From positions 496,001 to 560,000 of the forward strand of contig OZ374560.1 of the NCBI GenBank assembly GCA_977862235.1: 64,000 nt of DNA. Reading direction: 5' to 3'. Under the pieces are notes generated by a model. The model ran no database searches. It had not been told where the DNA came from and saw nothing but the letters and a program-made list of their open reading frames with translations. The position numbers and the translations under genes are program-made. Shown here one piece after another: positions 1,271 to 27,671 of this stretch (the stretch's first letter is position 1; each line of letters opens with the position of its first letter). Source of the stretch: Dudresnaya verticillata. Taxonomy: Eukaryota.

Positions 1271-3214
1271 CTTTGACTCTATATAATTCTTGCTTGGACA
1301 ACGAGGTGGAGCAGGACGAAAGCTGATATCAAGCTGTTTGAGATAAGATTTAAAATCCGAGTTTTAAAGGCAAGATCACCTTGAACTGCTATTGGGGGCC
1401 CAAAGGCAGATATCCAACATGCCTCAAGAGAATATATTGCATCTTCCATATTTTTGGTCGTAAGGCATTGCTCTGAGGAATACCTGGACATCGAGTCCAT
1501 TATATGGAATACATTTAAATCCTGGGGGAAAATGATCAACAAAGACAAGACCATTAAAACCACGCGATAAATTATTTAGAGATACAGTACGAGCCTTTTT
1601 GGGCAGGTATGTAGAGTGACAGTCTCGACACGACTCAAGAATCTTCTACAAGTACGATGCACATTCATCATTCCATAGACTATTTCGTTCAAGTAAAGTT
1701 TTGATGTCATAGTAGTTGGAATGGTCACAGACGTGTGCGCGAACCTTGTCTATACTATGCTTCAAATTGTTCCATTGAATAGAGCTAGAACTACTGACAA
1801 GATTTTGAATAAGCTCATCATCAATATAAGGACTTTGGTTACAAGTATTATCAGATGATGCAGTTTGCACAAAGCGGTCAGCAGGAGATAGTCTAGTAAA
1901 TCTTCTTTCACGATACGGATAGAATCCTGTATTCCAGCATAGTTCTGAACTGGGAGTTGTGACAAGTTACCATTCATATGCATAATGTTACAGTGCTTCA
2001 TGATAGTTTTGCCAATGACCCATTGAGACGGCCCAGAAATAATAAGGTACCTGATATGAATAGTAATTCCGCAGTCATTTATTGCATTTAAATCCACGGA
2101 GACCAACATACGTCGGACTGAACTTGAATGGGGGCCCTTGCCATACTGCCAGAATGGGCGGTCAGATACAGAGTCAGGAAGTGGTCCTAAGGCACAAGAC
2201 CAATGGGGTAAAATTAGTGGTGAGAGCTCACGAAGCTGAACTATCTCCGTGCCAGAATATGGAGCTCCATCGTCAAGTAGTGGATTAGGAAGTCGGGAAA
2301 GAGTTTCAAAAAAAGGGCAACTATTCAGAGTTTCCACGCTGAAGTGTACTGTCTCAGTCTTAGCAGTGGTATTGCTGGTTTCAACCTGAGGTTGTTTCAC
2401 ATCGGTCGATTTGTTTAAAGGACATTCTGGATCAATAGACCACTGCCCTTTTCTTACATGCACGACACGTAGACTTATTCTTGGCTTCAATAGTTTCTGA
2501 TGGAGTCATGTCCGCAATCTCTTTTCTACGAGGAGACTTCGTAGAGTTTGGTGTAAAGCCACTACTGGAATTTAAAGTAGACTTGGAAGTTCCTAAGATA
2601 TGCTTAGGACGGTCACATGTGCGAATAATAGTGGTAACATCTTCGTACTTGAAAGTTTGCAGCATTTCAGCCGAAGTTCCAACAACCTCTCCCACGGCCC
2701 GACGCGGTGCAGCTGCTGCAAGGATAGATATACGTTGATTGGCAGTAGAAAGGAGCATGACGACTCCGGCAATGTTGACTCCGTGGCTGTAGCGTTAAAG
2801 CGGCTTAAAATAGCATCAAAACGCATTTCAAAAGTTTTAAAACCTTCTTGATCACCTCCTGTTGCACTTAGTAAAGATAAAAATTTCTGGAAGACATCAT
2901 TCACAACCGCCAGAGGATCGGCTTTGTGAAGAGATTTTGCTATTTCCATTGCACCATTCGCGCCATGAATAGTTCGAGTATCCAATTTCATAACAATTTC
3001 TTGAGCTCGACCACATAGCCGTGACTGCAGAATCATTCCTTGAAGCTCAGACGGAATCTAATTTGTATTGCTCTCAGGTAACTTATCATGAAACGTTGAC
3101 CATAACTTGACAGAATTTGGATAGCGTTCTTGGCTTCCATGTCAGTCGGTCCAGGGAGCATCCTTGATTGTCCATGAACATTTGGGACGAGAGGGCAAAA
3201 AAGCTAGGGCTCAT
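1271..3214 (-). pseudogene. Copia gag-pol remnant with stops and frameshifts
   Basis: gag: WTIKDAPWTD*..VKLWSTFHDKLP..QGMILQSRLCGRA; knuckle CRACKK(R)GQWSIDPECP; protease LLDDGAPYS; integrase HVCDH, FHIMDSMSRYS, WISAFGPPIAVQGD, RPAPPRCPSKNYIESK (ends at 1271). Confidence 0.85.
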
Positions 3215-3218
3215 AACC
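3206..3218 (-). promoter_or_regulatory. Candidate primer-binding site of the half-tRNAiMet type (GGTTATGAGCCCT), overlapping the gag ATG
   Basis: Minus strand reads GGTTATGAGCCCT, complementary to the initiator tRNA-Met anticodon arm, as used by Ty5 and copia. Confidence 0.55.
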
Positions 3219-3528
3219 TAATAAAAAGGAGGGAAACAAAGTATGGGGTAGGAGGATATTAAAAGACAGTATAGAATTGGTAGATCAAATAAGAAAGTGT
3301 AATTGAATGTGTTATAATAGTTCTTCTAGTTCTGATGCCTGAGATCAAGAGTGAACGAACTATTGAGGGTTCTTATAGACTTGCTACTTCTCAGCTTGAG
3401 ATAGTATTCTAGTAGTTCAGAAAGTCTAGAAGACTATAGATGTTACTACAGTACTAGTGGAAGTCTGATATTTTAGCAATACTGTATTGATCTGATATTG
3501 CATGCATGTAATGCAATAACTCTAAACA
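3219..3528 (-). repeat. Candidate 5' LTR of the Copia fragment
   Basis: AT-rich non-coding block upstream of gag; starts TG at 3528 on the minus strand, exactly where element A sequence is interrupted. The inner boundary is uncertain (3219, or CA at 3340 followed by a degenerate GGCATCAGAAC). No partner LTR in the window. Confidence 0.55.
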
Positions 3529-5273
3529 AATATCCGAAAAGGATACAAGTTAGATAGATAATGCCTTGAGCGGGATTGCCTCGCATGGACATCTCTTCGT
3601 CGATGAGCCACACCGGATTGGCGTCTTATTCCGATAAGAAGGAATCCGTACCACAGCCGGGGTGGGGCGGTGGGACGGAAAGACGTGGTCCTCCTCCCAA
3701 TGGTAGCCGATGAAACCAGGGGTCTTCTCCCAGCTGCTGTTCGCGTTGGCGTCGAATAATCTCTGCACGCGCTCCAATGGGTACTGGGTTCCCTCGACAA
3801 GCGCGGCAACTCCCACTTGGTGTATGGTCGAGATGGACTTACAGGGTAGCTCGAAGATACGACCACAGTCGCACCCTCCGGATCGATGCTATCCCTCGGT
3901 AACGCTCTCCAGTCAGCGGACATCTTCGTGTTAGCATGCACACCGCGATTGGTGACTTGCAACCACGAGAAGAGGACGAACATCGCTCACTCTGAGCGGA
4001 GGATTAACCCGAAAGCGGCCATCTGTGGGTGATCGAACGACTTTTCTCCATCTGGGTGTAACGCCTTCCAATTACGGTGTTGATGGAACCGGTAGGAAAA
4101 ATGGGCCACCACTGTTGGAGTCAGAACCGAAAGCCAGCGAGTGATCTCGTACTCGGCCCTTCACCCCAGTGCGATGAGGTAGAGGCTACGGTGCGACGAT
4201 GGCGACACCTGGAATAATTCATGCGTATTCCAAGTATGGAGCTGCTCCCTTCCCAACTGGCGTCCATTTCTCCCCTCAAACGGAGGAGGAGCTCCTTCCC
4301 CGCATCATCAGACCATCGCTACGGATTGCCGAGCCAGTGCAGACCCTGGTCTCATGGCCTAGAGCAGCACAGAAAGTCACCACCAACCGGACGATGCTGT
4401 AGCTGATGGGTTGAAGCCAGCAAACGGCACACCTTTTCAGCATAGCCCTCTTCTTCCTGACACCGGATCCAGACGACGTCACACCCCGATGGAGCCCGCG
4501 TCCGACAAACGGAGTGAATCCAGCGGGAATTCCACTTCTCGGCACGCCGATTCGGAAACCACTTGTGGTTGATCAGTCCACCCGACTCTGTCACGGCGTT
4601 ATAACGGCGACCCTCGCGGGTATCGCCATATTTCATGACGAACACCGACACGGGCATGGGGAGCTGGACATCTCGCGCTCCTCTTCTGTCCGTTGGCGTG
4701 GGCAGGCGCTGTGGTCATACTCCCGACCCAGCTATGTGGCCTCGTCAGTGTACTCAGTCGGACTAGCACGCCCGCGATACCCAGTCGGAGTATACGCGTG
4801 TGGACCAGAAGGAGTTGCGGTACCACCCATGTGGAGTGCAGGCGTCAGATGCATGCCCCCCGCAAGCCCATACGGGTGACTCGGCTCGAAGGCCTCTTGA
4901 CGGTCAGGCGGAGTTGCCCACTACTGTCGCAGTGCAACCGGCCTACTGCCCCACTGCCGCGGTTTGCCGCTGTCGCGGTACTCCATCTCGGTGATACTCC
5001 TTGAGGGGGCCAGGGCGATGCGTGCCAGGCCCCCTGCGGCGATCAGACACCGACGTGCCCATTGTCTGTCCAACACCCCTGACTCGGCGGCGTGGAACTC
5101 TTGGACTGGAAGTGCGTGACGGCATCACTCCCACTCCCGCTGGAGTCTCCGGTACTGTGTTTGTAGGCGCGCGTCTTATTCCTCAGCTTGCGCCTTCGCT
5201 GCCGGTGCCTCCACCGTTGCCTGCGTACGTCGCGTGGGCTAAAAACGGGCCCGCGCGCGGTCAGTGCTGCCAC
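3529..5273 (-). pseudogene. Antisense accessory ORF of element A (disrupted, truncated)
   Basis: Fragments FPNRRAEKWNSRWIHSVC, WLSVLTPTVVAHF, LILRSE*AMFVLFSWLQV and TPGFIGYHWEED align with B aORF VPNRRAFVWQSRWVHSYC, WLSVPTPSVVASF, IFRSEWAMLVLFSWLQV and TPSFLGYSWDED. The start is uncertain. Confidence 0.75.
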
Positions 5274-5435
5274 TCGTACATCGCCAGCGGCACACCGGAA
5301 TGGAGAAGCACGTTAGTAGACAGGCGTCAATATGAACCCGCTGGTGTTTCAGAAGACGTGTCGCGGTACACCTGGTTGGAGTGCCTACCAAATGCCCGGG
5401 GCGAACGAGGACATGTCGCCATTTAAGGGGGGGCC

Positions 5436-6072
5436 TGCGGTGATGTGACCGTTGTGGAGTCCCGATTGAGCCGACTCGCGACCGGCACATCGGTGAGCTC
5501 GCGCCAAAAGCCGAAGCGGAGTGCAGCGGCACAGAAGCACTGTATGCCTTGCTGTAACCTGCAGCGCCCAGCAATCTGAACCAAGTAGTTGATTTATTTT
5601 TAATTAGGTAACTATAATGATTATGTAAAGTAAGTAGTGTAATGCCGGCCAATAAGAATGCTGAGTATGTCCGCAACGGTGATTGGGACCAGCAGGGCAA
5701 GATCCAACCAGTGGACCAGACCCATCCGGGTCTGGCCCACACGGACCGGGGCGCGGGGTATACCTCACACTATTTAATGTGTGTCCACCACGGACCCTGG
5801 GCAGAGTCCTTTACCCTAAGCTTTACCCTCGTACTCCTTCACGGTTCCCCGCGCTAGTCCCGTCCACGGATACCCCTATCTTCGTCTCGGTGTAACTGCC
5901 CCGGCACTGTACCGTCCCTCTTGTCAGTTGCTTCCCTTTACTCCTTACAGGTGTTGCCGCCCGCGGTACTCCCTTCGGTCTACGAACTAAGCTCTACCAC
6001 ACCGGTTTGGTTCGAACACTCCCTATTTGAATTGCCCGATCAGCTCTCCTTACAGGTGTGCCTCTCACTACA
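5436..6072 (+). repeat. 3' LTR of element A (637 bp, TG...CA)
   Basis: Starts TGCGGTGATGTGACCG right after the PPT; ends TCACTACA; shares the GGACCAGACC..GGGTCTGGCCC.CACGGACCG block with LTR B. Confidence 0.8.
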
Positions 6073-6469
6073 TCTCATCTTCTAGCCAATCAGATCAGTT
6101 GAACGCATTCTTTAACACCTTTGTTAAGAGGATACGATGCCGATCTTCCGAGGTCAGTTTGTAGCGAGGCATGACTCTCTTCTCGGCAAGATCGACACTT
6201 TGAGATTGAAAGACGACCTAACTCAGTCCGTTGTGACTGCAGCCAAGTCTACCCTGCTATTCTTCGCTCCACAGTCTTTCACGGATGATGAAATCTCCGA
6301 ACCATTCACCCTTCCGGACATTAAGCCGTTGGTGAACACATGACAAGCCATTTGCTGCCTCCATCCGAGATATTCTCAGAAACGTTCTTCAAGATTCCGC
6401 TGTTTGCAGTCACTCTGCTCAGGGCTGTTGCCGATCTCTATGGTTTCGGTGAAGTCACCAGGGACTAGT

Positions 6470-6859
6470 GTACCGTATTTGGCTCACTGTTAGCATTATA
6501 GCTCTAACTGAGAGGGTAGTAACTTCCGGCTCCCACCGTATTTATAAGGCCCCTGAGGAGCAGGGGCCACGCATTAAACGGCCCGCGGTGTGTGCCTTGG
6601 GATTTTACCCTTTCTTACACTCCCATGGTATCACCGCTATATAACCCCTCTAGGCGTTTACAAGCCATGCTACCTACAACGACTTCTCTAAGCAGGATGG
6701 TTAGCCTTCCCCTTACCCCCTCTTGGTCAGGGCTCGCAGCCGTTTCAAAGTCTCTACCACCCCCTTCAGGAGCTACCAACCACGAGAGTGGAATTGGCTT
6801 CAGGACAGCTCTCGCGCTGTGTTGCCGTCTGTTTTCTGGCTTGAAGCCATTTTACTACA
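6470..6859 (+). repeat. LTR fragment D (3' part), related to the LTR of element C
   Basis: Shares GGCCCCTGAG.AGCAGGGGCC, TTTCAAAGTCTCTACCA, CAGGACAGCT and terminal TACTACA with 27672-28315; left boundary approximate. Confidence 0.75.
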
Positions 6860-7021
6860 CGGCGTCATCCCCGGTGATCGATCGCTCGAGTTCTCCCTTA
6901 CGCACATGAATACGTTGACACCCTGGTCCTTGGCGTCCGTCACCCGGCTATATCATGCTACCGCCCTATTCGGATTACTCCGTGTTCTTGTGTTTTGCTT
7001 GCAGCTGCGTGGCTTCTGTGG

Positions 7022-7710
7022 TGTAGTGAAAACCCACGAACTCCGTAACGGACAGCTGGCCTGACTTTCCTACACGGGACGAGGGCGACACTACCTCCAC
7101 GGGGTGGTAGAGCAGTTCGCATCGAGACGAGAGAACAGCGAGCGGCTAACCGAATCGGATATTGGGAAGCAGCAGACAAGGGGGTGGTACAAGTGCCGGG
7201 ACGGACCCCGTAACGGTGGTGGTGGTAGACCGCAACGGGCTCGGCGCGGGGAAAACCGTAAAGGAAAGAGTTACACTGGGATTGAGGCTCAAGGGTTGCT
7301 TGCCCGTTTACCCTAGGATCCGCTGCGGTGCCGCCCTGATATACAAGTCAGGTTGGCACCGAGCGGTCCGGTCCGTGGGGGCCAGACCCTAGTGGTCTGG
7401 TCCTATGGTGGAATCGGCCGTTTTGGTCCCAATCTCTGACATGGATATGCGCAGCAATCTCATTGGCTGGCGCACTACTCTACACAAATTACAGATATTC
7501 ACAAAAATAAAGAATAAATACCACAAATACTCCGCTATGATTGGTGCGCTCCACTTACAGTACAGTGATGCGTACCAGTGCACACTAATGCGCACACAAC
7601 CGAAACAGTTACACGTTGCCAGATCATCAGCGTGGCGTATCGCTACATCATCCGTTACGGTTGGCTCAACGTCGGTGCGCCGCATGCGTGCCACGGCTCA
7701 CTTCACCACA
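7022..7710 (-). repeat. 3' LTR of element B (689 bp, TG...CA)
   Basis: Minus strand starts TGTGGTGAAGTGAGCCG right after the PPT and ends TCACTACA; same termini pattern as LTRs A and C. Confidence 0.85.
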
Positions 7711-7845
7711 GACCCCCCTCGTTAAATGGTGCCACGTCCTCGGGCGCCCACCGTCACGGATTGCCATCCCTTCCACATCCACACATTCATCCGATATTGT
7801 TAACGCTCTCAACTTTCCCTTATACTTCGTGCGCCTTCTTCCAAT

Positions 7846-10692
7846 ATGGCAGGGGAGAAAAGCAAGCGCTCCCCCTCGCCCTTTCAACCGAAACGGCGTA
7901 CTCGCGCGAGCTCGGCGACGAGAGCGCCGGGCGCACATACCGTCACGGATGCTTCGACGCAAGCACAGGTCTCTTCCTCGGCGGCTGCGACAAGACCCAC
8001 GACGCGTGGCCGTGTGGACGTCCCCGCATCGGAAGCCGTGCAGGTACCATCAGCGGGCCGCAGCTGGTCGGTCTACGATCCGAATCGGTTTGCTGCTCGC
8101 GCAGCCACAAGGACCGCACGGACAGGGAATGCAGCGACCCACCGTGACGGAGAAGAGTCGCCCAAGGATGATGATGAGGAGGTCCGACGTGGTGGCGAGG
8201 TGCTCAAATTGGCGGACCTTCCATCGATTCCGTTAAGGTCGCCTTCAACACCGACATCAACGCCGGTGCGGAGTATGCGAGCGAGCCCGCATCCTGCTCT
8301 CAACAATCCGAGACGGTCGCCTGTTCCAGCGCGAAGTACTACGCCGGCCTCAAGCCCTTGAATGTCGAGGGCGCGTACCCGTAACGGTGAGGGCCCTGCC
8401 ATAAGTGGATACTGGCCGGGGCACCATTTCGATCACCATGCTGGGCGCCCGGCGAGATCCGATGCGGAACGGGCGAAGGTCACACCGCCGATGACAGTGT
8501 CGTACTTCATCGAGGATTACCCACCCGTTTTGGAAGCGCAACGATACCAAGCCGTTTCGGAGCAGCCATTCAAGGCAAACCAGCTAATTGGTTTCGTTCC
8601 CAACCGGCGGGCGTTTGTGTGGCAAAGCCGATGGGTGCATAGCTACTGCCAAGAGCGCACCACTACCGTTTCGGATTTGTTGTGGTACCGTTGCCACGGA
8701 GAAGTTGGGTATACCGCGAAGGTGAGCCGCTTGTTCTCCAAGGCGTTCCTTCTACGGGGTAAACCGATCGGGGTGCAGTTCATCTGCTTCGACCCACCGT
8801 ATGACCAATCGGTGTATTGGATCCGCTATGCCGACGGGTGGAAAGACGACACGGCAACGGCACACCGATTGTGGACGCGCTACCGAGACGGAATGCATGT
8901 GGGCGCACCCATCTTGCACACGTGGAATACCAAGGAGTTCTTCCACCCTCCGTATCGGATGCGACGTGAGCTCTACCTCACAGCTCCGTCGTGGTGGGAT
9001 AGCTATGCGGTAACCCGTTGGCTATCCGTGCCCACGCCTTCTGTGGTGGCGTCCTTCTCCGCGGACCTGTTCACTGAGCGGGAGTAGAATCGCTAACATC
9101 CGAACGGAGAGCGTCCCCCGAACCGAGATCAGCTTGACGTGCTTTGGCGTATCTTCCGATCCGAGTGGGCAATGCTGGTGCTATTTTCGTGGCTCCAGGT
9201 TGCCTACTATGGCGTACGGTACAATACCAAGTTATCCGACTGGAGGTGCTTCCCGCGTGACGAAGATGACCTACCCGGAGGAGATTCTGGCCGTTTTTCA
9301 ACTACCCGTGACGGTAATCGCCCTAATTCGCCAAGTCGGCGCATCCGATTTGGTGACGGGGTCGGCGTATCCCCTCCATCGGGTTGAGCTTCCTTTATCC
9401 GTACACGAAGAGAAGGATTGGCAACGCACTCCGAGCTTCTTGGGATATAGTTGGGATGAGGACCGTATCCCATCGGTGCCCCCGCTTAGGCCCGGAGTGG
9501 GCGAGACATATTTCCTTCGTCGGGAAGATCCTCGTCCGGAATGTTTGGCCTTAGAGGTGCAAGCCCATCGGGGTTATGCGCCTCACCAAGCACCAAGGGA
9601 TACGTACCGTGACAGTTTGGAAGGGGCTGAAGATTGGAGGAGTTGTCAGGAGACAACTGGGCTTTCGCGTGCAATCGAGCCGCTCGATTCCGGCACGATG
9701 AGGCAGCAAGAAGCTCGCCCTTCTTGGAAGAGCAGGAGGAGGTCATACCCGTCGCACCTATGGCAGTGGATGTTGAGAAAGTAGCCGCTCCAGTCCTTCC
9801 GGTGGTCGCTACACCCACGTTGCGCGATGTAAGCCGTGAGACTACTACTCCCGTATCGGATAAGGCCCCGACGCCCATAGACGTGGTTGCGCCTACTTTC
9901 GCGGTGCCCAAGCCCGCGGCACCATCCAAGAAGCTGGCTTCGAAGGAGCAGACCGCTTCGGAAGCAGAGCCGGGTACTGTGCCGGCAGCACTGGCTCCTG
10001 CGAAGCAACTGCATGCAGCCGCCGAATCGCTCCCCACAAGTGCTCCGCTGCCGGCACTCACTCCCGCACCAGTGGTGAGTGAGGCACCGATCACCGTACC
10101 GGAAGTGGCGCCAAAACGCCCAAGTACCGAGGCAATTGGCGACAAGCCTTTGGCTCCCTCGTTGAATCATGAACCGTTACGGAAAGGCGATATCGCCTCT
10201 CCAGAGAAGGATACGAATCCACCTCCGCGGAAGAAAATACCTTCACCCGAGTCGGGACCATCCGTAATGGTGGTTTCCTCAACGAAGCATTCATTCGAAG
10301 CCGGGTTTAGGGATAAGCCGTCGATATCCCCGAAGGTAGAGCTTCAAGAAGATGAGGATCCCACCGTCACGGTTGCAGCCCACTTAGGCGCTACGGAAAG
10401 CGGGTTACAGGTGCTACGGGGTATTTGCCGTACACAGCGCTTCCCGTTGACAGGATCCGTTCAGGAGGCGTTAAACTTAGCGGAGGGACTGATGGAGAAG
10501 GTGATTCATCTCCGCGCAGTGGTCCGTCGTCAGCGTTGGCGTATGGATAATGCGCTGCGCGCCTCGGGCGACAATACGCAGCGTGCATTCCAATCGGATC
10601 CGGCTGGAGAACCCGAATTACGAACTCGGCAGGGGGGCAACGAAGAAGATATAGCTGCCCCCGCTCCGAAGCGGCGTCACCGTGACTCTTAA
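7846..10692 (+). pseudogene. Antisense accessory ORF of element B (about 950 codons, disrupted by stops and frameshifts)
   Basis: ORFs 7846-8361, 8362-9087, 9139-9387 and 9634-10692 are in one frame; 9134-9784 supplies a frameshifted middle part. Trp/Tyr-rich core plus Pro/Ala-rich tail; homologous to the aORFs of A and C. Confidence 0.8.
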
Positions 10693-10792
10693 AGTTACAG
10701 TTCGACGATCTCCTTAACGGTTTCACGTGTACCCCAACCTTACCTTGCGATAAATATTGTACGTACCCATCCACTAGCACTCCAGCTGTCCG

Positions 10793-11131
10793 TTACGGTG
10801 AGCGACGTCTTGGATTGCCACGTCGCCGTAGTTCACCCTTAGCGGAGGTCCTTTTCTTTTGTTTCCAATACCGGTAGATGAAAGTTTTCGGCAACTCCTC
10901 AGCGGGCTCAAAAGTGCCCTGATCCGGAGGGTAACCATACCAGCGGACTTTATATGTCATCCGAGTGGGTTCGTCGCGGTGACCGACAATCTTGTCGATC
11001 AAGTATTCCGTATCGGCTTGCAATGGTTCCGTCGCGGAGGTAGTAATACCTTCTGACGGAGGTAATGCACTAATACCTCCTGGATGTGGTCCTACTTCTC
11101 CGTAGACGGTTGAGGGTGTGACAGGCGGCAC
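10793..11131 (-). pseudogene. Element B integrase C-terminal chromodomain
   Basis: EYLIDKIVGHR..YKVRWYGYPPDQGTFEPAEEL matches the chromodomain consensus. Confidence 0.9.
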
Positions 11132-11180
11132 CGCTACAGGTGTCGGTTGGACAGAGACTCCGATCGGAACTTTCGTAACA

Positions 11181-12553
11181 CTATCGATACTGACAGGGAT
11201 TAATACCCCTTCCTTGCGGATGGAACCACATGTTCTGCTGAGGATTCCACTTCATAAGGCCCCGTGCCTCTCGGAGGAGTTTCTTCATTTCCTGAACCAC
11301 CTTGCCCACGTTATCCGGTTTGCCTTCCAATCGGTCCCGTTGACGGCGTTCTGCAGGCCGCAAGTTATGGGGCGGCCGGTCGACATATAATTGACCTCCG
11401 CTTTGGATTATGGGCCCACAGCGCACCTTACGGTCAAAAAGTGCCTTGTCCTTTTTCTGAGCCACTGTCTTCTTCGTGCGCGCTGTCTGGGGCGCATACC
11501 GTAAACGGCGCATAGTGCTCCGCTTCTGTAGCACCGGGCTCATACGCCCTTCCGTAACGGTTTCTTGATGCTCGGCAGGAGCCCCTCGTACAACAATGTC
11601 CGATGGGTGGCATGTCAGCACCAAATCAAATGGTGTTGTTTCCGTAATACTGTTTACCTGCATATTGTAGGCATACGTCAACGGTTGCAGGTACAAATCC
11701 CAATCGGAATGATGATCCTCAACGTAATCGCGCAAACGCTGGGCGATTGTCTTATTGAATCGCTCAGCTTTCCCATTTGTCTGCGGATGGTAGGCAGCGA
11801 TGAGTAGATGCCTGACTCTGAGTAAGGAACGCACCGCATCAAAGCATTTAGCAGTCCACTGCGGTCCGTTATCGGTTAGGACAAACTGGGGTGCGCCATA
11901 CGCATACATCCAAAAGTCCAGAAAGGCGTTAGCCACCACAACGGCTGTTGTTGTCCGTAACGGAATACAGCGCGTCAGCTTAGAGAACCGATCGGTTATT
12001 ACCAAAACGTAGATATAACCCCTTTTTGTCTTCGGAAGTGGCCCGAGGATATCGATAGCGACAAACTCCAAAGGTCCGCTAGCGGGGAAAGTTTCATAAA
12101 CCTTTGATTCCGAAAGCGGGTTCCCTTCGTCTTGACGCACGAGCGACATGTCCGAACGGATTCAAATAAATCGCTGGCCATTTGAGGCCAGTAATAATCC
12201 TGTCGAAGTGTATAATACATCTTAATCCCTCCTGAGTGTCCCGACATCAGGGTGTAGTGGGATAAATACAATACCCGTCCACGGAGTTCGCTTGGCACCA
12301 CCTTCTGCAGAGCACCATCGAATTGGGACTTGCGCACCAATAATCCGTTACGGTCATAGTCAAATTGTGATCCAGGGGATCCTACCATATCGGCTTTGAG
12401 ACGACAGAAAGGGTTTCGGGCTTGTGCTTTGAGGCACTCCTCCCTGATTATTGTCTCATCCTTAACATCGGATTTTTGGATTACAGTAAACCGTGACGGT
12501 ATCGCGTCGGGCTTGTCAGGGGAGGCGGATGCACTTACACAGGAGGGCTCCAC
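11181..12553 (-). pseudogene. Element B integrase (HHCC zinc finger + DDE core), frameshifted
   Basis: SHYTLMSGHSG..CRSC; VAIDILGPLP, TDRFSK, LTDNGPQ, YHPQTNGKAERFN. Confidence 0.93.
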
Positions 12554-12659
12554 GGCGAATATTACGTCACTTTGCCGTAGCGGTTTCTTGTGATGTGGCC
12601 CAATCTGTTAAATGAACTCCATACTCATATAATCCGTCGACGGTATTTTCGGCGACAAA

Positions 12660-13140
12660 GCAAGGTATCTCTTCATCCAAAGGTAGGTCGTCACCGCCAT
12701 CCGTTCGGAGTCGCGACATCCCATCGGCGAGTTGATGCTTAATACCTGGACGGTATTACGCATCAAATTCAAATTCCGATAGGCGGAGCCTCCTGCTGGC
12801 CAGGCAGCCAGATGACTCTGCGAGGTTCAGGATCCATCGAAGAGCATCGTGATCCGTTCGGGGAATAAACTTGTCACCGTAAAGGTATGGTCGGAGTGTC
12901 AACATGCTCCAGACCACGGGTAAGAATTCCTTTTCGGGTTTAGTATAATTTTTCTCCGCATCGGTGAGGATCCGGCTCCAGTATCCAATAGGGAGGCGAT
13001 CGCCATTCGGTTGTTCCTACAAAAGGACACAGCCGACTTGATGGTCACCTGCGTCAGTATCCAACGTATATTTATATCCGTGACGCGGTAGAGACAATAT
13101 AGGTAGAAAGATAAGGCGTCTCTTCAGTTCCGTATGGGCT
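12660..13140 (-). pseudogene. Element B RNase H with in-frame stops
   Basis: Manual translation: LDTDAGDHQVGCVLL*..PIGYWSRILTDAEKNY..TDHDALRW..LADGMSRL. Confidence 0.85.
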
Positions 13141-13326
13141 TGTTAGAAACATTCGAGACCCAGATCCGAAACAGTTTGCTAGGTACAAATGTCCATAATA
13201 CCGTTAGCAATTAACGTAAGGTGCTTAAAAGCCGGCTTGGGATGATTTTGTAAAAACCATAACCCACCCGTGGGGTATTAACCGTTACGGAGGTTTGAGG
13301 CATAGGGGGAATAAGGGCAGATCTTG

Positions 13327-13875
13327 CTAAATGAATTTTCTGAGAAACCGTAGCGGTGGATAAAGATGAGGGCTGTAGAGTTGCGGCGGTACCCGTATTC
13401 GGATTTTTGGCTTGACCAACAAGGGATACCGGGGGTTAATGGTGAAAAACGACTTTCCGTAACGGGGAAGGATGGCCTTCACATAGCGGTCGATGAAGAT
13501 AGTCCCCAAAATACGCGGAGCAGCTAAGTTCGCGACCACGAGGAAGTGGAAGCGAGCACGGAGCTCTCCAATACGGAGGAAAATTTTGATCTGACCAAGG
13601 GGGCGGATAGCGCGATTAGATGCATCCCGTAGCGGAGGACTGGTGGCGGGGCGAATGAGGGGTAGCCATTGACGGGGAATTCGCCTGGCACTAATGAGAG
13701 TTGGCCCCGCGCTAGAGTCCAATACGGAGAGTATAGGAAGCATCACGCTATCTGTCCGTCCCACGGTAATTTGAATTTTATAATTTTGTTGTTGTATAAC
13801 ACTTATAGGATCATTGGTCTGAAAAGCCAATGGAAGTTCCGTAACGGTATTTCGCCGATCCCCGGGCGAGTCCAC
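13327..13875 (-). pseudogene. Element B aspartic protease (degenerate)
   Basis: LSVLDSSAGPTLI ... ILGTIFID, aligning with element C LSVLDTGAGPHLI ... ILGCTFID. Confidence 0.85.
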
Positions 13876-13919
13876 ACTCGCGAGAGGTGGAACGCTGTGA
13901 GGCGGGGATGGCGGCGCCC

Positions 13920-16328
13920 TTACGCGTCCCCCCTTGCGTTTTCCGAAATCAAGGGTGCACCAGTCGGATCCACCTTCATGTACTCGCGCAATTCCGCGTA
14001 TTTCACCCCGTCATGGTCCTCAACCGATAATATCGGGGCATTCCGTTGCGGAGGAGCCGTTTGCGGCTTGCCCCGATTCGCTTGCGGATTCGATCTGGTT
14101 CCCACGAGAAACCTGCGGCCTACGGGGTAGTACCTCTGGAAGTTGCGCTCACGCTCTTCCATGAGCTCGACCCGATCGGTGTCATCTATCCACGGGCAAA
14201 CGACATGTTCTGCAGAAAGACAGATGCGGCAATTGCTATTTCCGAAAAGGCGTCGGACCCGAGGATCCGACTCATCCCATAGCGGAGGCGCTGGTTGCTG
14301 CAGTCCTCGCCCATCGTGGGCATTATTTCCGTAACGGTGACTAGGCTGCTGTTGGGGGCCAGGAGCCCGGCGAGATGCAACATAGGGGGGACCTTGCGCT
14401 CGTGGCATCCTGGGCGGCGTAGGGTGAACGCTTTGCGGGGGTGAAGAGTACGGGGTTGAAAAGGTAACCCCCGTACTTGTTCCCGTAGCGGCACAGTGGC
14501 CTCTCTCGACTGCTAGCACTTGGTCATCTGGAGTGGAAATATTTCATTGCGGCTCGTAGTGTACATCCGATACGGAATCCAGCGATAATACCTTAGACGG
14601 GCGCGCTTTAGTGCGCCCATCAAAGACGTGAGCCGGAACGGTTTGGAGTCGAGGTGCCCGATGGGACTGACCCAGATCAGTCGCCTAGCGAGTGATGGCC
14701 TGTTAATCCAGCTGGGAATGCGTTGCAAGACAATTTCGCATCTGTTGACGCGTCCCAGGTAGGAGCCCCTCGACGAACAGTGACTTCAATGCCCGATCGG
14801 AAAATACAGTACCGCAGCGGAGAGCCTAAGCCCAGAGTTGGTTAGAGAACTGCTCTTCCGTCATGGCGGATGTTTGCCTGAAATTTCTGACATCCGTATA
14901 GGCTTCAGCGATCACTTCATCCGTAGCGTAAGTCCTCAGTAGGAAATTCACCACCTCGGAGTAAGAGCGGAGCATCTCAGCCTGCTCCACATCAACCGCC
15001 ATGGTACCTCCAGCAAGCCTAGCCTGTAGAAGGGCTTCGGCCTGTCCTTTTAGGAAAAACTGGAAGCACCAGACGGCAACCCCCTCGGCGATGCCATTGA
15101 TATTACAACCGTCACGGAACATGGCGAGAAATATCAAGACGGTAATAGGGTCCGTCCCATCGAATGTATGGGAGGACACCTGGACGTCGAGTTTCTTCCG
15201 TATACGGCTCATGTTCTGTGAGAACTTAGAGCCGTACGTCTTACTCCTCTTATCCAATCGGTAGGTGCGGTAGTACAGCGCCTTGACAAACTTCTCATGT
15301 AGCGGCCGGATTACCTTCACCTTTCCGGATTTGGCACCGTGTTTTCTGGCTCGGTGCCTATTCTCTCTATCCGTTAGGGAAGAACTATCTGAGCCTGATT
15401 CAGTAGAGGAAGAGGAGTCATGCCTTTTTCCGCGTTTCCGCGATCTTCTTTTTCTCCTTTTCCGCGAGCGATGTTGGCTATCTTCTGAGCTTGTCTCATT
15501 ACATCCCATACCGGATTGGTGGCGTCGTCGCTGGGTGTGGTCGCCCATGTGCGACCGAGGGGGCGGGTCAGAGCGGGAGTGTCGGGCATCTCGATTATGC
15601 CCACCTCGACCGGTCCTCCGACTCGGATGGGGTGAGCTGTACGCATCGCAGAGATGGTCGCTGCCTCCACCTGATCGAACCGGAACGGTATAGCGCTCTT
15701 GCTGATAGCGCCCTGGCGTAGGAACATCTACGTGTCCAGGAGAATAACGTAACGGTGGCTGAGTGCGTGTTGGTCCCGTAGGGTATTGATGTTGCGAATC
15801 CGTTACTGGAGCCGGTGGCAGTGGCCCAGAGAGTACTGTACCCGGCTCTAATCCTATAACGGCGGGTTGTTGCGGCTGCTGTGTTCTTCTCTCGACCGGT
15901 AAGTCATTCCGTAACGGTGGTTGCTCAGTAGAAGCTTCCGTAGCGGAAGGCCTTGCCAGGCCAGGAGCAGTCTGGCTCTCGAGCTCGGCGGCCACCTTTT
16001 CCTGTAGGATGAGAGCTTGCACCAACCGGGGAAGGTGCTGCTCCAAGTAGGAGTTAGGCAAAAACGGAACGGTTTCCGAGAGGGATATCTCCACCTCTTT
16101 CACCATTCCAGGTTGTCATTCCAATCGGAGATGCTCTAACACCCTGACAAGGACCTCCGACAGGACCCAGTGGTGTGGTGCAAGGGGGCACATTGGGAGT
16201 TCCACGTGGACAGAATCGCCCGTAACCCCGAAAACAACGGTTCTGAGAAGTTTGCCATCATAGGGAGACGTTCCCCGATAAGAGCAACCACAGGACCGAA
16301 TCCTACGTTTCAAGGTTGTCGATAACAA
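13920..16328 (-). pseudogene. Element B gag with several in-frame stops
   Basis: ORFs 16116-16328, 14826-16106 and 13920-14519 are in one frame; YRTYRL..FDGTDPITVLIFL aligns with C gag YRRYRL..FDGSDPVSIIGFL; degenerate knuckle CRICLSAEHVVC. Confidence 0.85.
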
Positions 16329-16341
16329 TCTCGTTTAGAAG

Positions 16342-19032
16342 ATGCCGACATATAACGGTGAAACCACCCGCCCAGGCTTAATGAGCCGGGGTGGTAGCCA
16401 TACCGGCAGCTTATCCTCCGTGAGGACCACGGGAGCAAGAACCCGTGCTGTAATAGCCGCTTTGGCTCGAGGTCCTACAGTAGGAGAAGCGGAACGCCCG
16501 CCCCGAATGGTGGGCGCACCAGGAGACGAAGACCCGTCTGCCCATGGAAAAGGACAGACCCCTGAAGGAGAAAATACGGCCCGGACTGCAGCCGCAAGCA
16601 CCGCCAAAATCGGTGCAAATGAGGGTCCGGACCCTACTATGCTGCCGCCGCCGCCGATGCTTCAAGCTGGTTACAGCCAGCATGACACAGGCGGACTGGC
16701 CTTAGAAGAAGAAACGACTTCATCGCTTCCTCCCGATATCGGAATGCCGATGAGAACGAAGGCAAACTCAAGCGACCAACGGTGCTTTACGGAGCGTGAA
16801 ATTGGTCACTTGGTCGAGACCGGCATCGAGAATGCTCTCGGCACTAGCGTATTGGCGCTGCTTGAAAGCCAGGCAGATGAAACCCTCACACGGGTGAAAC
16901 GCTATTTCGACGACGCCATCACGCGTCGAGACGACCAGCTACTGGCTAAGTGCCAAGAAATGGTCAGTTCTCGTTGCCAACAACGCCCCCTGAGGGGTTT
17001 AGATAAGGAAAGGGTCGAGACCCTACAAGCCCAAGTGGACTCAATGGGGGACCAGTTGGAATCGGTTCATCTTGAATTAGATGAAGCCACGAAGGCTGCC
17101 GACCTTTCCAGGACAGAAGCCGCAATGGCTATTGCGGACGTTCAATTTAACGTGGACAACGCACGGTGCGTTGAACAGGACAGAGCCATCGAGGTCCTAA
17201 GGAAAGAACTCGATGAGGAGAAGCGTCGTGTCGCTTTTCTAGAATTGCAGATGCGGCGCGTAACCCGCGAGAGGGATAATATCCCTGAAGTCATGAGACG
17301 GCGCTCACCAGTGCCTCGCGGTACGCGCGACAGGCGTAGGAGGCTACCCCATAGGGGGTCGGACAGTGGGTCCCAAGGTGAAGGAGATGGAGGCCGTTGC
17401 CAACTGGGTTGCAAGTGCACCAGACCAATTGGGTCTTCTGCACACCGCGACCAAGTTGATTCTCATCGTGACAGATATTCAAGTCATCGTCACGAGGAGA
17501 ATCCTCGGTCAGGGTCTCACCCTAATCCGGGTCCCTCGGATGAAGAAGGACCGGGTTCCCGTTCGCATTCTAGACCGTCATGGTATTCCTGGAGGGGTGC
17601 CCGACGTTCCGGTGTGAAGGAGCTGACTCCTGGGAATCCTGCTTTCATACAGGTGCTGTCCTATAGAAGGTATAGGTTATTGAACCTGGATGATTACCGC
17701 GGGCCCGAGGTGACCGAGGCGACCACGAAGAAAATCAAACGCGTCAAGTCCGCTATGCGGAGTCGCCGTTTTGACGGGAGTGACCCGGTGTCAATTATTG
17801 GCTTCTTAGTCACGCTGAAGAGGCAGCTCGATCAAGCCCATATCAACGGAGGTGCCGCTATACTCGTCATCCCCGAGTTCCTCGAGAAGGATGCGAAGGA
17901 TATGTTTGAAGCGAATTTTGACGCTGCGAGTGACGACAATGGTGGTTTCACCGAATGGCCCGAAGCCGTGAATTACCTTCTCTGGACCTATGCCAAGGAT
18001 GTCTACATTGAGAGGATTGCCTCTGAGATGGACACGATGGCGCAGGAGCCAGATGAGGACGAGGTTACTTTCTCGAGAAGGTTGCAGAACAAAGCGCGTC
18101 GAGTCGCTGGGGTGTACACCGAACAAGACTTGATAACCAGGTTTATTCGGGGGTTGTTACCAGCGGTGAAACCGCTTTTAAGTACGTCGTCCTTGGACCC
18201 AATGACTGCCAGACTGGCGGATTATGTCGAGCTTGCGACTGCACAGGGAGATTCCCATCGGGCGCTAGTAGGTGGCGGACGAACGCCAAAAGCGAATAGG
18301 ACGATACCAAGGAAGACCTTGAAGAAGGTTCGTACCCACAAGTCAGGACGGGCGCTCCTAATTCGCCAGGCGAAGGATACATCCGCCTCCGATTCGGATA
18401 CTTCAAAGAGCAGCGGCTCTGATGCGGAAAGCGAAGACGCAGTCGTGGCCACCATCGCTAACGAAGCGCCACCATGAACAGCGACCCAATCGGATTCGTG
18501 GTCGACACAGTATTACTACGACCAACCGTATCACGATGAAGTTGACGCGGTACTGCAGAACTACAGTAATAGGCTCCCCGCCTGGGCACAGCCAACCAGG
18601 ACTCAACGCCCTGGGTGGGTGACGGTTGAAGACCAACCTAATGATATCTGCTTCGAATGCTACGGCATTGGCCATAAAAAGCCCAACTGTCCACATTTGG
18701 CTCGAACCGATGAGCAGTCTTTTGAGACTTTAAAAAGAAGACAGTTTCATAAACTATCACACGAGCAAAAAGCGTGGCTGGCGACCGTTGGCCGACTGAC
18801 GGAGTTCGCTAACGAGCGAGTGCCCGCCGGGCCGCCCATAGGGCAACGGATGGATCCCCGTCACAATTTGGATGCAAGTCAAGGGGGAAATCGACAGGTT
18901 CAATTTAAACCTGCACTGAACCACCCCATTGACGCTCCGAGGTAAACGCCAAGGTCACCACGCCAAGGGCCTCGTCCCTTTCCACCACCTCCACCGCTAC
19001 CGCGGTCGCCCACAATGAAGGCAAAAAACTAG
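16342..19032 (+). pseudogene. Element C gag (in-frame stops at 18475 and 18943)
   Basis: 711-aa ORF continues in frame into the CCHC knuckle CFECYGIGHKKPNC and ends GCA AAA AAC TAG. Confidence 0.88.
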
Positions 19033-22000
19033 CGAGGGGGGAACAGGTTTCGGTACACCACATATCCCAGGTGACATCGGAACCCCCCGATCGGTACGTT
19101 GAATCCAGCTCCTCGAGCTACAGCTTCGAAAACTTCTCATCAACGAATCGACCGGTTGTTAGTGAATCTGTGACTTCTCTTCCCAAGAAGATCTTAGCGC
19201 GTCCTGTGGGCTTACCCCCCGGACGGAAGTATCACGAGTATTGTAAGGATCCCGTTTGCTCCTTGTCGCTCTACAATTATAAAGTAGCTGCGTCCATCGG
19301 GACTTCTGTTGACGATCTTACTCGTGTGCTCTCCGTACTGGATACAGGGGCAGGCCCTCATCTCATCCGCGCGGATGTTCTATCACCGAAAGACAAGAAA
19401 CGGATTTCTACAACGCGGTCAATTGTGAACTTGACCTCCGCGTCAAGTTACCAACTAACTACACTGGGAACAGTCTCCCTGATAATCAGGCTCGGGTCCT
19501 ACACGGTTCGGCAACCTTTCGTTATCGTAAGGGCATTGGCAGTAGATGCCATCTTGGGTTGCACGTTTATCGATACCCATGTGGAAGGGTTACGCGTCCG
19601 CCAACAGAACATGGTTCTTCGCGACGGGTCCATTCACCCAATTCTACGCCGCCGATGCGGTATACCTCGTGAGGGCAGGTCCGACGAACCAATGGACGTT
19701 CCCCCGTTACCTACCTCGCGACTCATTCGCGTCGCACAAACTACTAATTTACTGCCCGGCAGTGAGTCATGGGTTCCTGCTACCCGTTCTGCCAAAGGAA
19801 CACATTTCCTGGAATCCCTACCCCGCTTATACGAGCGCCGACAAGTCGTTTTGACGAATGGAATTTTCAACATTCAAGAGAACCGACTCTTTCACGTCAA
19901 GGTCGCGAACTTTTCTTCGCGTCCTCAACGGTTTTCCAAGAATCAAAGCCTTGGCAAGGCTGTACCGGCGCCCACGCAGACGCCGGTCTACACTGTCTCC
20001 ATCGAGGATAATGTTCCTGCCAGTGACACGCTTCCCTCGTCCCAAACATTTTCCGATTTAGGGGGGCGGGGCTTGCTGCTGGGCTTTCGGCTGCTCTGAA
20101 GACGGATATAGACTCTAAGCCTGGAATCAAAATCGCGACTTCAGCTTCAACCGCTATTACGGTCGATGACCTCGCGCTGGAACACCTGTCCACTTCGGAC
20201 CGGCGCCGCGTACGCAACATGCTTAAACCGTTCGCCGGTATGTGGGACGGAAAACGCGGCACCATCAAGGTGACCGAACACCGTATTGAGCTTCAAGAAG
20301 GTTCGAAACCAGTGTTTACTCAACCATATCGGTCGGGCCCTAAAGCCCGTCAAGCAAAACAGGATGAGGTCGACAAAATGCTCAAATAAGGCGTCATAGA
20401 GCCTGCACGCTCTGCGTTTGCGAGCTCCGTCGTTTTGGTTAAGAAGCCCGACGGGTCACTCCGCTTTTGCGTTGAATATCGCAAGCTGAACGCGATTACA
20501 GTGAAGGATACGTATCCTCTGCCGCGCATGGACGAGTATTTGGACTTCCTGCGCGAGGCCCAATGTTTCAGAACCTTGGATTGCAATTCAGGCTACTGGC
20601 AGATTCCGGTTTCACCGGAGGATAAGCATAAGACTGATTTTGCATGCCACGAGGGCTGCTTACAATTCTGCAGGATGCCCTTTGGGCTATGCAACGCGCC
20701 GGCGACCTTTGAGCGAACGGTTGACATCCTCTTATCAGGATTTCGATGGAAATCGTGCCTCGTATACCTCGACGATATTATCGTATTCTCTGCAACTGTC
20801 GACGGGCATATCACGCATGTAAGAGAGATTCTCTCAGTATTACAAGAAGCGGGGGTCTCCTTGAAACTTAAGAAGTGCAACTTCTTCACAAAGAGTGTCG
20901 ACTACTTAGGGCACGTCATCCGTCCAGGTTTATTAGAAGTGGAGACTAAGAATACGCAAGCCATCGAAGTCTTCAAGGAGCCGACCACCCAGACCCAGTT
21001 ACGGTCTTTCATCGGTCTTTGCAACGTTTACAGGCGATTTGTACCTAACTTCGCTCGCGTGGCAGCTCCGCTCAATGCCCTCCTGCAGAAGGAAGTGGGC
21101 TTTGAACGCCCGCAGTTCAATGAACGTCAGCGCGAGGCGTTCGGGTTGCTGAAGAAAGCGCTAATAGCGCCTCCTATTCTTAGGTTGCCACAAGAGGGTA
21201 AGGCCCTATCGGTGGATACCGACGCGTGCGACTACCAAATTGGTTGCGCGCTAATGCAAGCCTAAGAAGACGGGACTCGACACCCGATAGGCTTCTGGAG
21301 CCGAGGGCTGACGAAGGCAGAGAAGAATTACTCTGTAGGCGAAAAGGAGTGCCTAGCAGCGGTCTGGGCGGCACAATTGCTCAGACACTATCTAGAAAGG
21401 TCCCACTTTGACCTGTATACAGACCATCAAGCGCTGAAATGGATGATGAGTATGACAGATGCTTCTGGACGGTTGGCCCGTTGGAGATTACGCCTCCTGG
21501 AATACGACTTCACGGTCCAGTATCGAAAAGACAAAAAGAATCAGATTGCTGATGCCGTATCTCGGTTGCCCACGTATGGCTTCACGCCATGGGAACCGGA
21601 CCTGGAGATCCCGTGTCTAATCCTCGCGACTGATCCGAGGGACGAACCCTGCAAAAGGTCGCGACTGGAGCCCAATACGCGACCGTTGGAAGCGTGGGAA
21701 ATCGAACCCGTCGATGAGTCCGATTCGGATGACGAAATGTTCATCGCCCAAGTGGCCGAGAAGGAATCTGGACAAAAGGGACTATCCCTCATCACCACAG
21801 AAGAGTTGCTCCGTGAGCAGAAAACAGATGAATTCTGTATCTGGGTCCGAAGGAACCTCGAGGCCGGGAAGCCTGGTTGTTATCTCGAGGACGAACGAGG
21901 GCTCCTAGTCCGGAAGTCGTATATCGACAAGGCGATACAGGTTCTCATACCTCGTTCTCTTAAGGAAAGGGCGTTACACCTAGCGCACTACCCCGAGATG

Positions 22001-23451
22001 GCGGGACACCCAGGTGGAACCCGGATGTATCATAACCTGCGAAGACAGGTATATTGGCCAGAGATGGCATTGGATGTGAACGCCACCGTGTGTAATTGTG
22101 TCAAATGCGCGCAAGAACGGGTGAAGTTGCGGAAACATGCTTCACATATGAAACTCTTCCCGGCTACCATGCCTCTGGAGTTCGTAGGAATCGATATCCT
22201 GGGCCTGTTACCCCGCTCCGGGAAAGGAAACGAGTTCCTGTTGGTTATGACGGATCGCTTCTCAAAGCTGACGCGAGCGATACCGATGAAAACGGTAACC
22301 GCCTATACCGTGGCGAAGGCGTTTTGCGACCATTGGGTCTTTATCTATGGACCGCCCCGTTACGTCCTTTCAGACAATGGGTCTCAATTTGCCTCTAAGT
22401 TCTTTCTCGCCGTGTGCGATATCCTACGGATTCGGAATATGTTCACGTCGACATACCATTCCCAAACTAATGGGCAAACCGAGAGGTTCAACCGCACCAT
22501 CCTAGCGGGCCTTCGCCACTTCATAGCGGAAGACCAGAGGGACTGGGACGAGTTTGTAAGAGTCACCTCAGCGCTCACGTACGCTTACAATACGACAGTG
22601 CATCGCGCTACAGGGTTAGCCCCTTTTGACTTAGTTTTGTCAAATCCACCGACTTCCCTACTATTGGAACAAGCGGAAACGGTAGACATTGACGGGATAC
22701 CCGCTACGAACCTCAAGAAGCGCCTAACCGCTCGGCTGGAAATGCTCATGGATACAGATCTGCCGCGGATGCAACTAGCGCAAAAGCGCTATGAATCCAA
22801 CTTTAATAACCGCATTCGACCGGCTAACCAAAGGGTACGTCCTGGGTCATGGGTATTCCTCGAACGGGAAACCAAAGTGAAGGACGCTTCAGGTGTGGCG
22901 AGGGAAGGGAAACTGTTCCCGAAAGCCCTTGGGCCATATAAGGTTCTCGAGAGAGGAACCCATGTGGTGGTTCTCGACATCAAGGGCGACAGAGAAACAA
23001 TCTCTTTGGACCGAGTCACTTTGGCTCCATCGCCACACGAAGCGCCGCTGGCACTAGACATGAGTCCCACGGTAGTGGAAATGCCACCGGAGACAGGTGC
23101 AACACCTTCAAGTAGCCCAACTGGGCCAAATGACGGGCCCATCACAAACGCCACTGGGCCCCCGATGAATACCGCATCAGGCAGTAATGAACCGGCGCAC
23201 CCCGAAGACCGCCTGCACCGACAGTGGCGGAAGGGACGTCAAGCCGCAAATTCTCGCGCTTCAAGAAGGCGCCACCACGCGAACACGTGTACGAAAGGAT
23301 CGTTTCCTACGACCCCGACACATACCTCTATCGTGTGCGGTGGTTCCATAGCCCGGCCTCAAAGGACACATGGGAGCCAAATGGGCATCTCCCTCACAAT
23401 TTAGTTGCAAGGTATCACCGCCAAAAAGGGATACCTTTCTCTGATAATTAG
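19029..23451 (+). pseudogene. Element C pol (protease, RT, RNase H, integrase, chromodomain) with stops and frameshifts
   Basis: LDTGAG; MPFGLCNAPATF, VYLDDII; DTDACDYQIG, TDHQAL; GHPGG..CVKC, IDILG, SDNGSQF, ERFN; chromodomain YRVRWFHSPASKDTWEP (23224-23451). Confidence 0.95.
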
Positions 23452-23726
23452 CGAGGCGAACACGAGCGTTGAGTAAGGCACCGGGCCTATGAGTGGTCTC
23501 AAGAGAGCGCACCCAACCAAAACAGAAGTTAGGCTGTATGGAGTCGGATCTCCCGAATGTTAGACTCACCTCATATGAGTTGAGGTAGAACTTGGTTCTG
23601 GATTCCGAAGCCGACGCCCTCGCGCAAATACGAACGCAGCCTATGAGCTAAGGACGGCATTCACCGATTACCGAACACAGAAGCTGTGGTTAACCTCTGA
23701 AAAGATGAGACAATATAGATGGCTAC

Positions 23727-23885
23727 AGAAGAGTCAAGAATCTGGATAGATGAGGAAATGGATAGATGAAAGAAGAGTCAAGACTCTGGATAGATGTATA
23801 ACATGGATAGATGTTAGAAGGATTGGATCCTGGATAGGTGCATGGAAATGGATAGATGTGAACAAGAGGTGAACTCTGTAAGATA
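23727..23885 (+). repeat. Degenerate tandem array, unit about 44-45 bp, each unit with two TGGATAGATG
   Basis: TGGATAG(A/G)TG at 23743, 23759, 23787, 23804, 23831 and 23849; unit starts at 23727, 23771, 23816 and about 23861. Confidence 0.9.
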
Positions 23886-27146: not shown

Positions 27147-27671
27147 CTTGGCACCACGGGGTGAACAGGTCTTCTATCCAGCCACAGTGGCTATTCTTGA
27201 CTATTGCGCACGTGACGGCCCGGCCGTAGGAAGAGGTGCACGGATGGCGACAGGGTACAGCGGGTCCCGCTACTGCAACGTGCACAGACCGCCGCAACCG
27301 AAGAGGGACGCGAAACCTAGATGGGTCGCCGAACAAAAGCACGAAGGTGTTGGAGATGGTAGTGCGAAGTGGGGATGTGCACAGGGCACGTGAGCGGACG
27401 CCGCTGTGATGCCGCTGAAGTATGCACCGCTTGGGGCTTTCCGCGCGAAGACACAAACGGTTCGGCACAATAATGAGACGGGCGCCGTCGAGACTGGGAC
27501 GGCCAAGCAAGTGATTTGTCACTACTGTGAATCGTTTCACAAACTGCCGCCTGTGGCGGCGGTTACAAGTGAGCCGTTGGCCCAATACCCCACTGGGATT
27601 TCAAGCTCGCCCAAGACGGGGCCGATAGAAACAGCCTTGCTGGCATCGCCTCAGCCTTAACGAGGGGGGTG

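Follow-up and report, generated by a model that had tools for sequence, protein, structure and literature searches.

A nine-base palindrome dispersed through a defective red-algal-type Ty3/Gypsy chromovirus as a candidate family-specific recognition mark

The DNA analysed here (hereafter the window) is a stretch of 64,000 nucleotides from Dudresnaya verticillata (assembly GCA_977862235.1, contig OZ374560.1, positions 496,001 to 560,000), in which a remnant, A, and two larger elements, B and C, lie next to one another (Table 1). Element B carries many copies of the palindrome CCGTNACGG and is a defective (incomplete) Ty3/Gypsy chromovirus of the red-algal type. On the minus strand its parts follow the order gag, protease, RNase H, integrase with chromodomain, antisense open reading frame (ORF), purine tract and long terminal repeat (LTR). 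Matches to the Pfam families Integrase_H2C2, rve and Chromo were obtained, and tblastn places the integrase after RNase H. The order from gag to chromodomain is that of red-algal Ty3/Gypsy chromoviruses known from Chondrus crispus and Gracilariopsis chorda proteins, and the best named match to the B integrase is a Chondrus crispus protein (60% identity), which points to a red alga as host. Unlike these elements, B has no reverse transcriptase and no 5' LTR; there is a single LTR, and residues 230–689 of the Pol of an intact relative have no counterpart in B. The B family was seen as one copy only.

An earlier note on this DNA had claimed 21 exact copies of the palindrome in element B, one copy elsewhere and several one-off variants, spread over the LTR, antisense ORF, integrase, protease and gag. 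All of these sites were recovered, and sites were additionally found on the RNase H side and in two spacers. By region, three exact sites lie in the LTR, six in the antisense ORF, four in the integrase region, one on the RNase H side, two on the protease side, three in gag and two in spacers. The whole window thus holds 22 copies, while its dinucleotide shuffles (n=100) gave a mean of 0.72 and a maximum of 4; the other 54.7 kb, with the single copy at 24352, is at background, and host DNA lacks the motif. Allowing up to one mismatch, 83 sites occur in the window against 24.1 expected, and 54 of them are inside B. The fuller form of the motif is WCCGTNACGGW, with A/T flanks, and the broader word CCG-N3-CGG is found in B 54 times against 6.2 expected (other gap lengths, 2–12). 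When all 256 palindromes of the 4-N-4 type were compared in B, CCGT reached 21 copies and the runner-up 4, and the best spaced word had a log10 p of -26.6, compared with -6.4 at best in 15 shuffles of B. Choosing the motif after the fact therefore fails to account for its count. It is the dyad and not the half-site that is enriched, as CCGT outside dyads is found 104 times against 77–79 expected (about 1.3-fold). No tandem array in B contains the motif. The earlier description of the sites as evenly spread can be retained in a modest form: spacing is somewhat evener than random in three of five site definitions (P 0.005–0.016; 0.016 for exact and 0.005 for one-mismatch sites), the other two giving P 0.07–0.08. 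The sites show no periodicity (P 0.3), and a nucleosome-like pattern noticed by eye, with gaps near multiples of 190, was rejected (P 0.27–0.41).

Constraint from the encoded proteins was examined in 7,479 coding bases of B, 8 of the 21 exact sites falling outside the segments used. Thirteen exact sites were present in these segments, while shuffling of synonymous codons gave a mean of 0.71 (maximum 4 in 2000 shuffles) and shuffling of codon order 0.17. The 13 sites are distributed over the three codon phases as 4, 4 and 5. Both results bear out the earlier view that the sites fall in every phase and that protein constraint does not explain them. Of the 21 peptide positions in B that would permit the motif, 13 carry it. 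Moreover, the B proteins themselves lean towards the motif: motif-permitting peptides number 21 against 6.0 expected (3.5-fold), compared with observed and expected values of 7 and 6.5 in element C, 23 and 19.0 in 17 Gag relatives, 35 and 26.7 in 33 integrases (the closest 33 of 120 listed) and 50 and 46.4 in 39 accessory proteins. At the gag site 15109, for example, B reads FRDGC, while FKMAC or FKTAC stands at this place in 8 of 16 relatives; the remaining B sites lie in conserved peptides (e.g. IPLRT) or in variable stretches. Codon and composition constraint is thus insufficient to account for the B motif. The sites very likely arose one substitution at a time under selection, and the evidence is good that dispersed recognition sites are what was selected for.

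Whether the selected form is duplex or single-stranded was considered from the surroundings of the sites. The base pair just outside the dyad is complementary in only 4 of the 21 exact and 14 of the 54 broad sites, and 5-bp hairpins are not in excess in B (35 against 31.9 expected). The sites are nearly strand-symmetric (T4 in 29, A6 in 34; flanks A..A in 11, T..T in 12). In an RNA context, the arms have a mean predicted pairing of 0.36 for the sense strand and 0.23 for its complement. The absence of stem extension in B, together with a non-palindromic motif present in both orientations in remnant A, favors a duplex reading, and on balance the substrate of the B motif is probably double-stranded DNA. 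The earlier note had proposed sites for a dimeric DNA-binding protein. That the dyad is the enriched unit, under selection and more easily read as duplex DNA, agrees with this proposal, while binding, the identity of the binder and its dimeric state stand as candidate features. Its alternative of host Myb recognition found no support: TAACGG outside dyads occurs 8 times against 4.2–6.8 expected, and 7 of the 21 exact sites are C/G-centered and lack this hexamer. A Myb/MSA-type site is likewise unsupported by AACGG, which outside dyads occurs 30 times against 18–25 expected.

The two neighboring elements differ from B in their dispersed words. The exact B motif is absent from A and occurs once in C. 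The accessory ORF of A is 38–48% identical to that of B in pieces over 4669–3578, and its product is the closest to B's among the proteins compared (45% against at most 35% for others, over more than 50 columns). The top spaced word of A is CACC-N5-GGAG, found 9 times against 0.32 expected (log10 p -10.2, compared with -7.9 for the top word of 60 shuffles). Four copies are forward and five reverse, with both orientations inside the ORF, and the two truly palindromic versions do not occur; for an asymmetric word in both orientations, a site on duplex DNA is the simplest reading. The core ACC-N5-GGA ranks first in A; among the 22,182 words of B it comes eighth, whereas its rank in C is 4793. Other top words of A rank from 57 to 19,042 in B, so that the part shared is the core only. 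Element C shows an excess of short perfect hairpins with 5-bp stems and loops of 3–4 bases (z 13–15), which number 127 against 42.8 after synonymous shuffling. Its dyad AG[G/C]-N7-[C/G]CT has covarying arms (36 matched, 1 unmatched), and the stems end at an outer A-T pair, with 3 of 36 extending further. A short tandem array of GGATAGATG-containing units was also noticed at 23727–23874, between pol and the accessory ORF of C.

Relatives were collected by integrase alignment. The 142 loci fetched comprise the best 80 of at least 548 confirmed in metagenomes, 2 viral loci and 60 from genome bins, the last including about 18 weak or bacterial matches; IMG/VR searches gave 0 and 2 distant loci. 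Several bacterial metagenome-assembled genomes (GTDB bins, L083–L124) hold eukaryotic Gypsy contigs, likely misbinned host DNA. The closest integrases fetched are at most 54% identical to that of B. None of the 142 loci was enriched for the B motif: 110 had no copy and the maximum was 3. Likewise, the motif was not found in L001, a 1.6-kb locus that FastTree groups with B as its sister by integrase, in a tree read without regard to support values. In genome G002, WCCGTNACGGW occurred 7 times, at scattered positions, whereas the control word had 13 sites. Among the 136 sequences with a result, the dispersed word of B was the strongest.

Other families carry dyads of their own; those given here were chosen after inspection of the data. 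Against values after synonymous shuffling, CTC-N6-GAG was found 23 times versus 3.1 and 3.2 in the pair L087 and L088, GGC-N5-GCC 20 times versus 5.8 in L002 but 4 versus 2.6 in its sister L003, and GGC-N4-GCC 19 times versus 5.1 in L023, where hairpins number 87 against 26.8. Short hairpins reach at least twice their expected number in 55 of 87 red-algal-type loci, compared with 2 of 27 distant Gypsy loci; the 87 loci are not independent, since many are copies of four families. In the distant Gypsy pair L112 and L115, which has a third sense ORF and no match to the accessory domain, the 3-3-3 dyad CGTTCNACG occupies 10 and 8 coding sites against 0.3 expected, in the sense orientation only and never reversed; these sites are candidate dispersed RNA signals. 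Two further words were discounted: an excess of ACC-N5-GGA in L099 is due to a tandem repeat, and the L007 family shows only a weak signal for ACC-N4-GGA, whose log10 p within the element region reaches about -4 at best. The earlier note had tied its reading to excess conservation of motif positions among copies of one family. Conservation of fourfold-degenerate arm sites was seen in L087/L088 (8 of 11 against 187 of 495 elsewhere) and L112/L115 (11 of 11 against 165 of 508, or 32%), and it was missing in L002/L003 (1 of 3 against 176 of 496), where the motif was lost or gained; all three pairs belong to families other than B.

The antisense ORF of B encodes an accessory protein. An index-free search with it retrieved 27 homologues, among them hypothetical proteins of Gracilariopsis chorda (e.g. 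PXF39757.1), while a word-index search for longer proteins gave no match. Iterated profiles delineated a conserved domain, some 280 positions long, that A, B, C and 50 of the fetched loci share and that none of the 27 distant Gypsy loci has. AlphaFold2 models were confident both for the homologue P0125 (predicted local distance difference test, pLDDT, 88.8; predicted template modelling score, pTM, 0.88) and for B's own domain piece (pLDDT 83.4, pTM 0.81). With Foldseek, no match to the domain was found at E ≤0.001 in the PDB and viral libraries; in VIA-align the homologue model reached a best Z of 2.8, and B's own piece had no match with Z ≥2. A PDB sequence search returned nothing for the domain, the ESM Atlas no usable match and PHROGs none. 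For 64 accessory members no Pfam match lay below E 0.006, and neither Plant Mobile Domain (PMD) nor Transposase_28 was among their matches up to E 0.1. These blanks in fold and family searches fall short of proving a new fold. Among the conserved positions of the domain are several arginine, tryptophan and tyrosine residues. The B ORF and, of 32 long homologues, 8 have a basic C-terminal stretch resembling a nuclear localisation signal (NLS). The C-terminus also bears a resemblance to a SAP-like helix pair, which found no backing in Pfam or in the homologues and was dropped.

Some features of the surroundings may be added to those of Table 1. B and C stand head to head at 16328–16339, both without 5' LTRs, an arrangement that may reflect deletion, rearrangement or an assembly join. 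Just left of B, positions 6400–6860 hold the 3' part of another LTR, similar to the end of the LTR of C. A SET-domain ORF (Pfam E 5e-21) lies at 34570–35766 in the flanking host-like region. No Rfam match was found within 3000–29000.

Table 1. Coordinates of elements A, B and C and of their parts in the window (position 1 is the first letter of the window).
Feature	Position	Strand	Remarks
Element B	7022–16328	-	Decayed Gypsy chromovirus with internal deletion, 5' LTR absent; 21 exact CCGTNACGG, 54 CCG-N3-CGG
3' LTR of B	7022–7710	-	TG...CA ends; probable limits, drawn from the termini and the purine tract; partner LTR lacking; exact sites 7043, 7208, 7652
Polypurine tract adjoining B LTR	7711–7723	-	Recognised from sequence
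Antisense accessory ORF of B	7846–10692	+	Stops and frame changes; conserved domain ~8446–9500; basic NLS-like C-terminus
Exact sites in B accessory ORF	7940, 8142, 8379, 9306, 10174, 10364		
pol remnant of B	10793–14010	-	~460 residues including reverse transcriptase absent
Protease of B	13785–13396	-	
RNase H of B	13139–12645	-	
Integrase zinc domain and core of B	12484–11652	-	
Chromodomain of B	11011–10868	-	
Exact sites in B pol remnant	11552, 11955, 12345, 12491, 13282, 13457, 13839		
gag of B	13920–16115	-	In-frame stops; exact sites 14329, 15109, 15909
Remnant A	3500–6072	+	Accessory ORF on minus strand; purine tract and LTR 5436–6072; CACC-N5-GGAG x9 (4 forward, 5 reverse)
Element C	16339–28315	+	Gypsy, gag-pol, 3' LTR; intact accessory ORF 24828–27173 on minus strand, belonging distantly to the accessory domain family

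Taken as a whole, these observations are best explained, at a probability of roughly 40%, by a family-specific palindrome that runs from end to end of B and would mark the integrated double-stranded DNA for recognition by the element itself. The reader would be the element's own antisense accessory protein, acting in a sequence-specific way, and once bound it might keep the family transcribed or shield it from silencing. That the accessory protein reads the motif is plausible, though somewhat short of an even chance; it is the best candidate because the most similar accessory proteins, those of A and B, share the motif core, and because three families in one host differ. Activation or anti-silencing as the effect is a tentative suggestion, taken from the analogy with VANC only.

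This analogy concerns the Arabidopsis VANDAL elements, Mutator-like DNA transposons. The protein VANC21 binds a motif of 9 bases that is peculiar to the family encoding it (PMC5735166). As in VANDAL/VANC (PMC5735166; PMC10398659), a short motif is dense in one transposable element family and rare elsewhere, here 21 copies in the one copy of B, at most 3 in any of the 142 loci, none in A and one in C; related families have different motifs, and an accessory protein is encoded beside the transposition genes. However, the VANC motifs are mainly non-coding, tandemly amplified and in one orientation, while the B sites extend through coding sequence, in all phases, and are non-tandem. Furthermore, B is an LTR retrotransposon, and no similarity of its accessory protein to a Pfam family was found. 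With 13 sites in coding segments and no tandem array of the motif, B is not classed as a VANC-type member. Antisense extra ORFs are also known in plant Gypsy elements, their function being called an open question in the review PMC7264820, and nuclear localisation of Grande GENE23 is reported. Position, orientation and family-wide conservation are the same, whereas here the element is a red-algal chromovirus, its ORF lacks a Pfam match such as Transposase_28 or PMD, and an element-wide motif is not mentioned in the parts of that review consulted.

Several observations weigh against a duplex mark read by the accessory protein. The net charge of the accessory domain is near zero in most homologues, and the same domain is found in families with hairpins or without a clear motif, while L112 and L115 carry a dispersed dyad without this domain, so that motifs of this sort do not depend on this protein. 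The evidence from A amounts to 9–13 sites in 2.6 kb, and the conservation data stem from other families, B being a single copy. In C the covarying arms fit a single-stranded structure better than duplex DNA, and in L087 and L088 the inner pair of the dyad matches in 14 of 25 and 18 of 25 sites, covarying as in stems. Within B itself, the central base is T in 28 and A in 13 cases on the genomic sense strand (P 0.03), and the folding of B windows is slightly more stable than that of their shuffles (z of -0.87 and -0.55, compared with about 0 in host DNA and -0.66 and -0.96 in element C); as the values are similar, folding energy fails to separate B from C.

Since the family-specific dyads of several relatives resemble stem-loops, a reading at the RNA level has to be weighed as well. 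The dyads would then be dispersed signals on RNA or single-stranded cDNA by which Gag or the accessory protein recognises the transcript of its own family in order to package, export or protect it, and the B motif would be a minimal stem of three base pairs with a triloop. We regard this as somewhat unlikely, yet it draws on the abundance of hairpins in red-algal-type loci and its persistence against synonymous shuffling in C and L023, on the covarying arms in C and L087/L088, on the sense-only CGTTCNACG and on a preference for C in the sense-strand loop in L002 (9 of 14 and 10 of 13) and element C (23 of 36, P 0.06). Multiple dispersed packaging signals are known in RNA viruses, where many degenerate short signals lie genome-wide in coding sequence and are read by an element-encoded protein (PMC6281560); the likeness is good for L112/L115 in appearance and for C in part. 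The signals described there are strand-specific stem-loops, whereas the asymmetric motif of A occurs in both orientations within one ORF and the B arms are fixed in sequence, unextended and weakly predicted to pair. In addition, a sense-strand G-U excess is lacking in the stems of most hairpin-rich red-algal-type loci listed, L091 and L092 being exceptions.

Less probable still, and in our view unlikely, is the evolution of the sites for a host dimeric DNA-binding factor, different for each family, that would open chromatin or drive transcription. Such a dimer would select just this kind of dyad, specific in sequence and flanked by A/T, the Gypsy pair without the accessory domain has dispersed motifs all the same, and motif-bound plant PMD proteins are reported to counter Polycomb silencing (10.1101/2024.09.27.615353). 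However, the motif is at background in the rest of the window, three adjacent families in one host have three signatures, the sisters L002 and L003 differ in GGC-N5-GCC, and the Myb hexamer by itself is barely enriched. A mutational origin without selection, whether by palindrome-perfecting template switching, by tandem duplication or through CG sites being shielded from decay, is very improbable. Many relatives do have more generic short inverted repeats than expected, and palindrome-perfecting errors could produce these, but such errors cannot yield one fixed sequence in B, so far ahead of the next palindrome, or the non-palindromic motif of A. Nor does B hold a tandem array with the motif, and the fourfold arm sites are conserved in two sister pairs. 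CpG is not depleted (observed/expected 1.09), and CG protection alone cannot therefore give an excess of about 150-fold.

An extension of the self-recognition mark proposed for B to the whole group is possible, if doubtful. Red-algal chromoviruses might practice a clade-wide self-barcoding in which family dyads, duplex in A and B and stem-loops in C and others, are read by a co-evolving accessory protein of undescribed fold. Under this equally tentative view each family would have written its dyad into coding sequence dozens of times, accepting altered amino acids where needed, and the reader would activate, protect or select none but its own family. No account of the B motif or of such retrotransposon barcodes was found in the literature covered, subscription papers, Repbase reports and supplements, which may describe the ORF, being beyond its scope, and chromatin organisation in red seaweeds is called unexplored in a recent preprint (10.1101/2025.02.11.637652).

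The window provides a testable pair, namely a defined motif and a conserved domain that is modelled with confidence and found no structural match, and the natural variants across families predict which protein would bind which motif. If true, clade-wide barcoding would give LTR-retrotransposon antisense accessory ORFs their first function and would reveal nucleic-acid-binding domains of a new class, in which variants of differing specificity occur naturally. Even with Gag or a host factor as the reader, family barcodes maintained at synonymous sites over an entire retrotransposon would alter current views of codon use and self-recognition.

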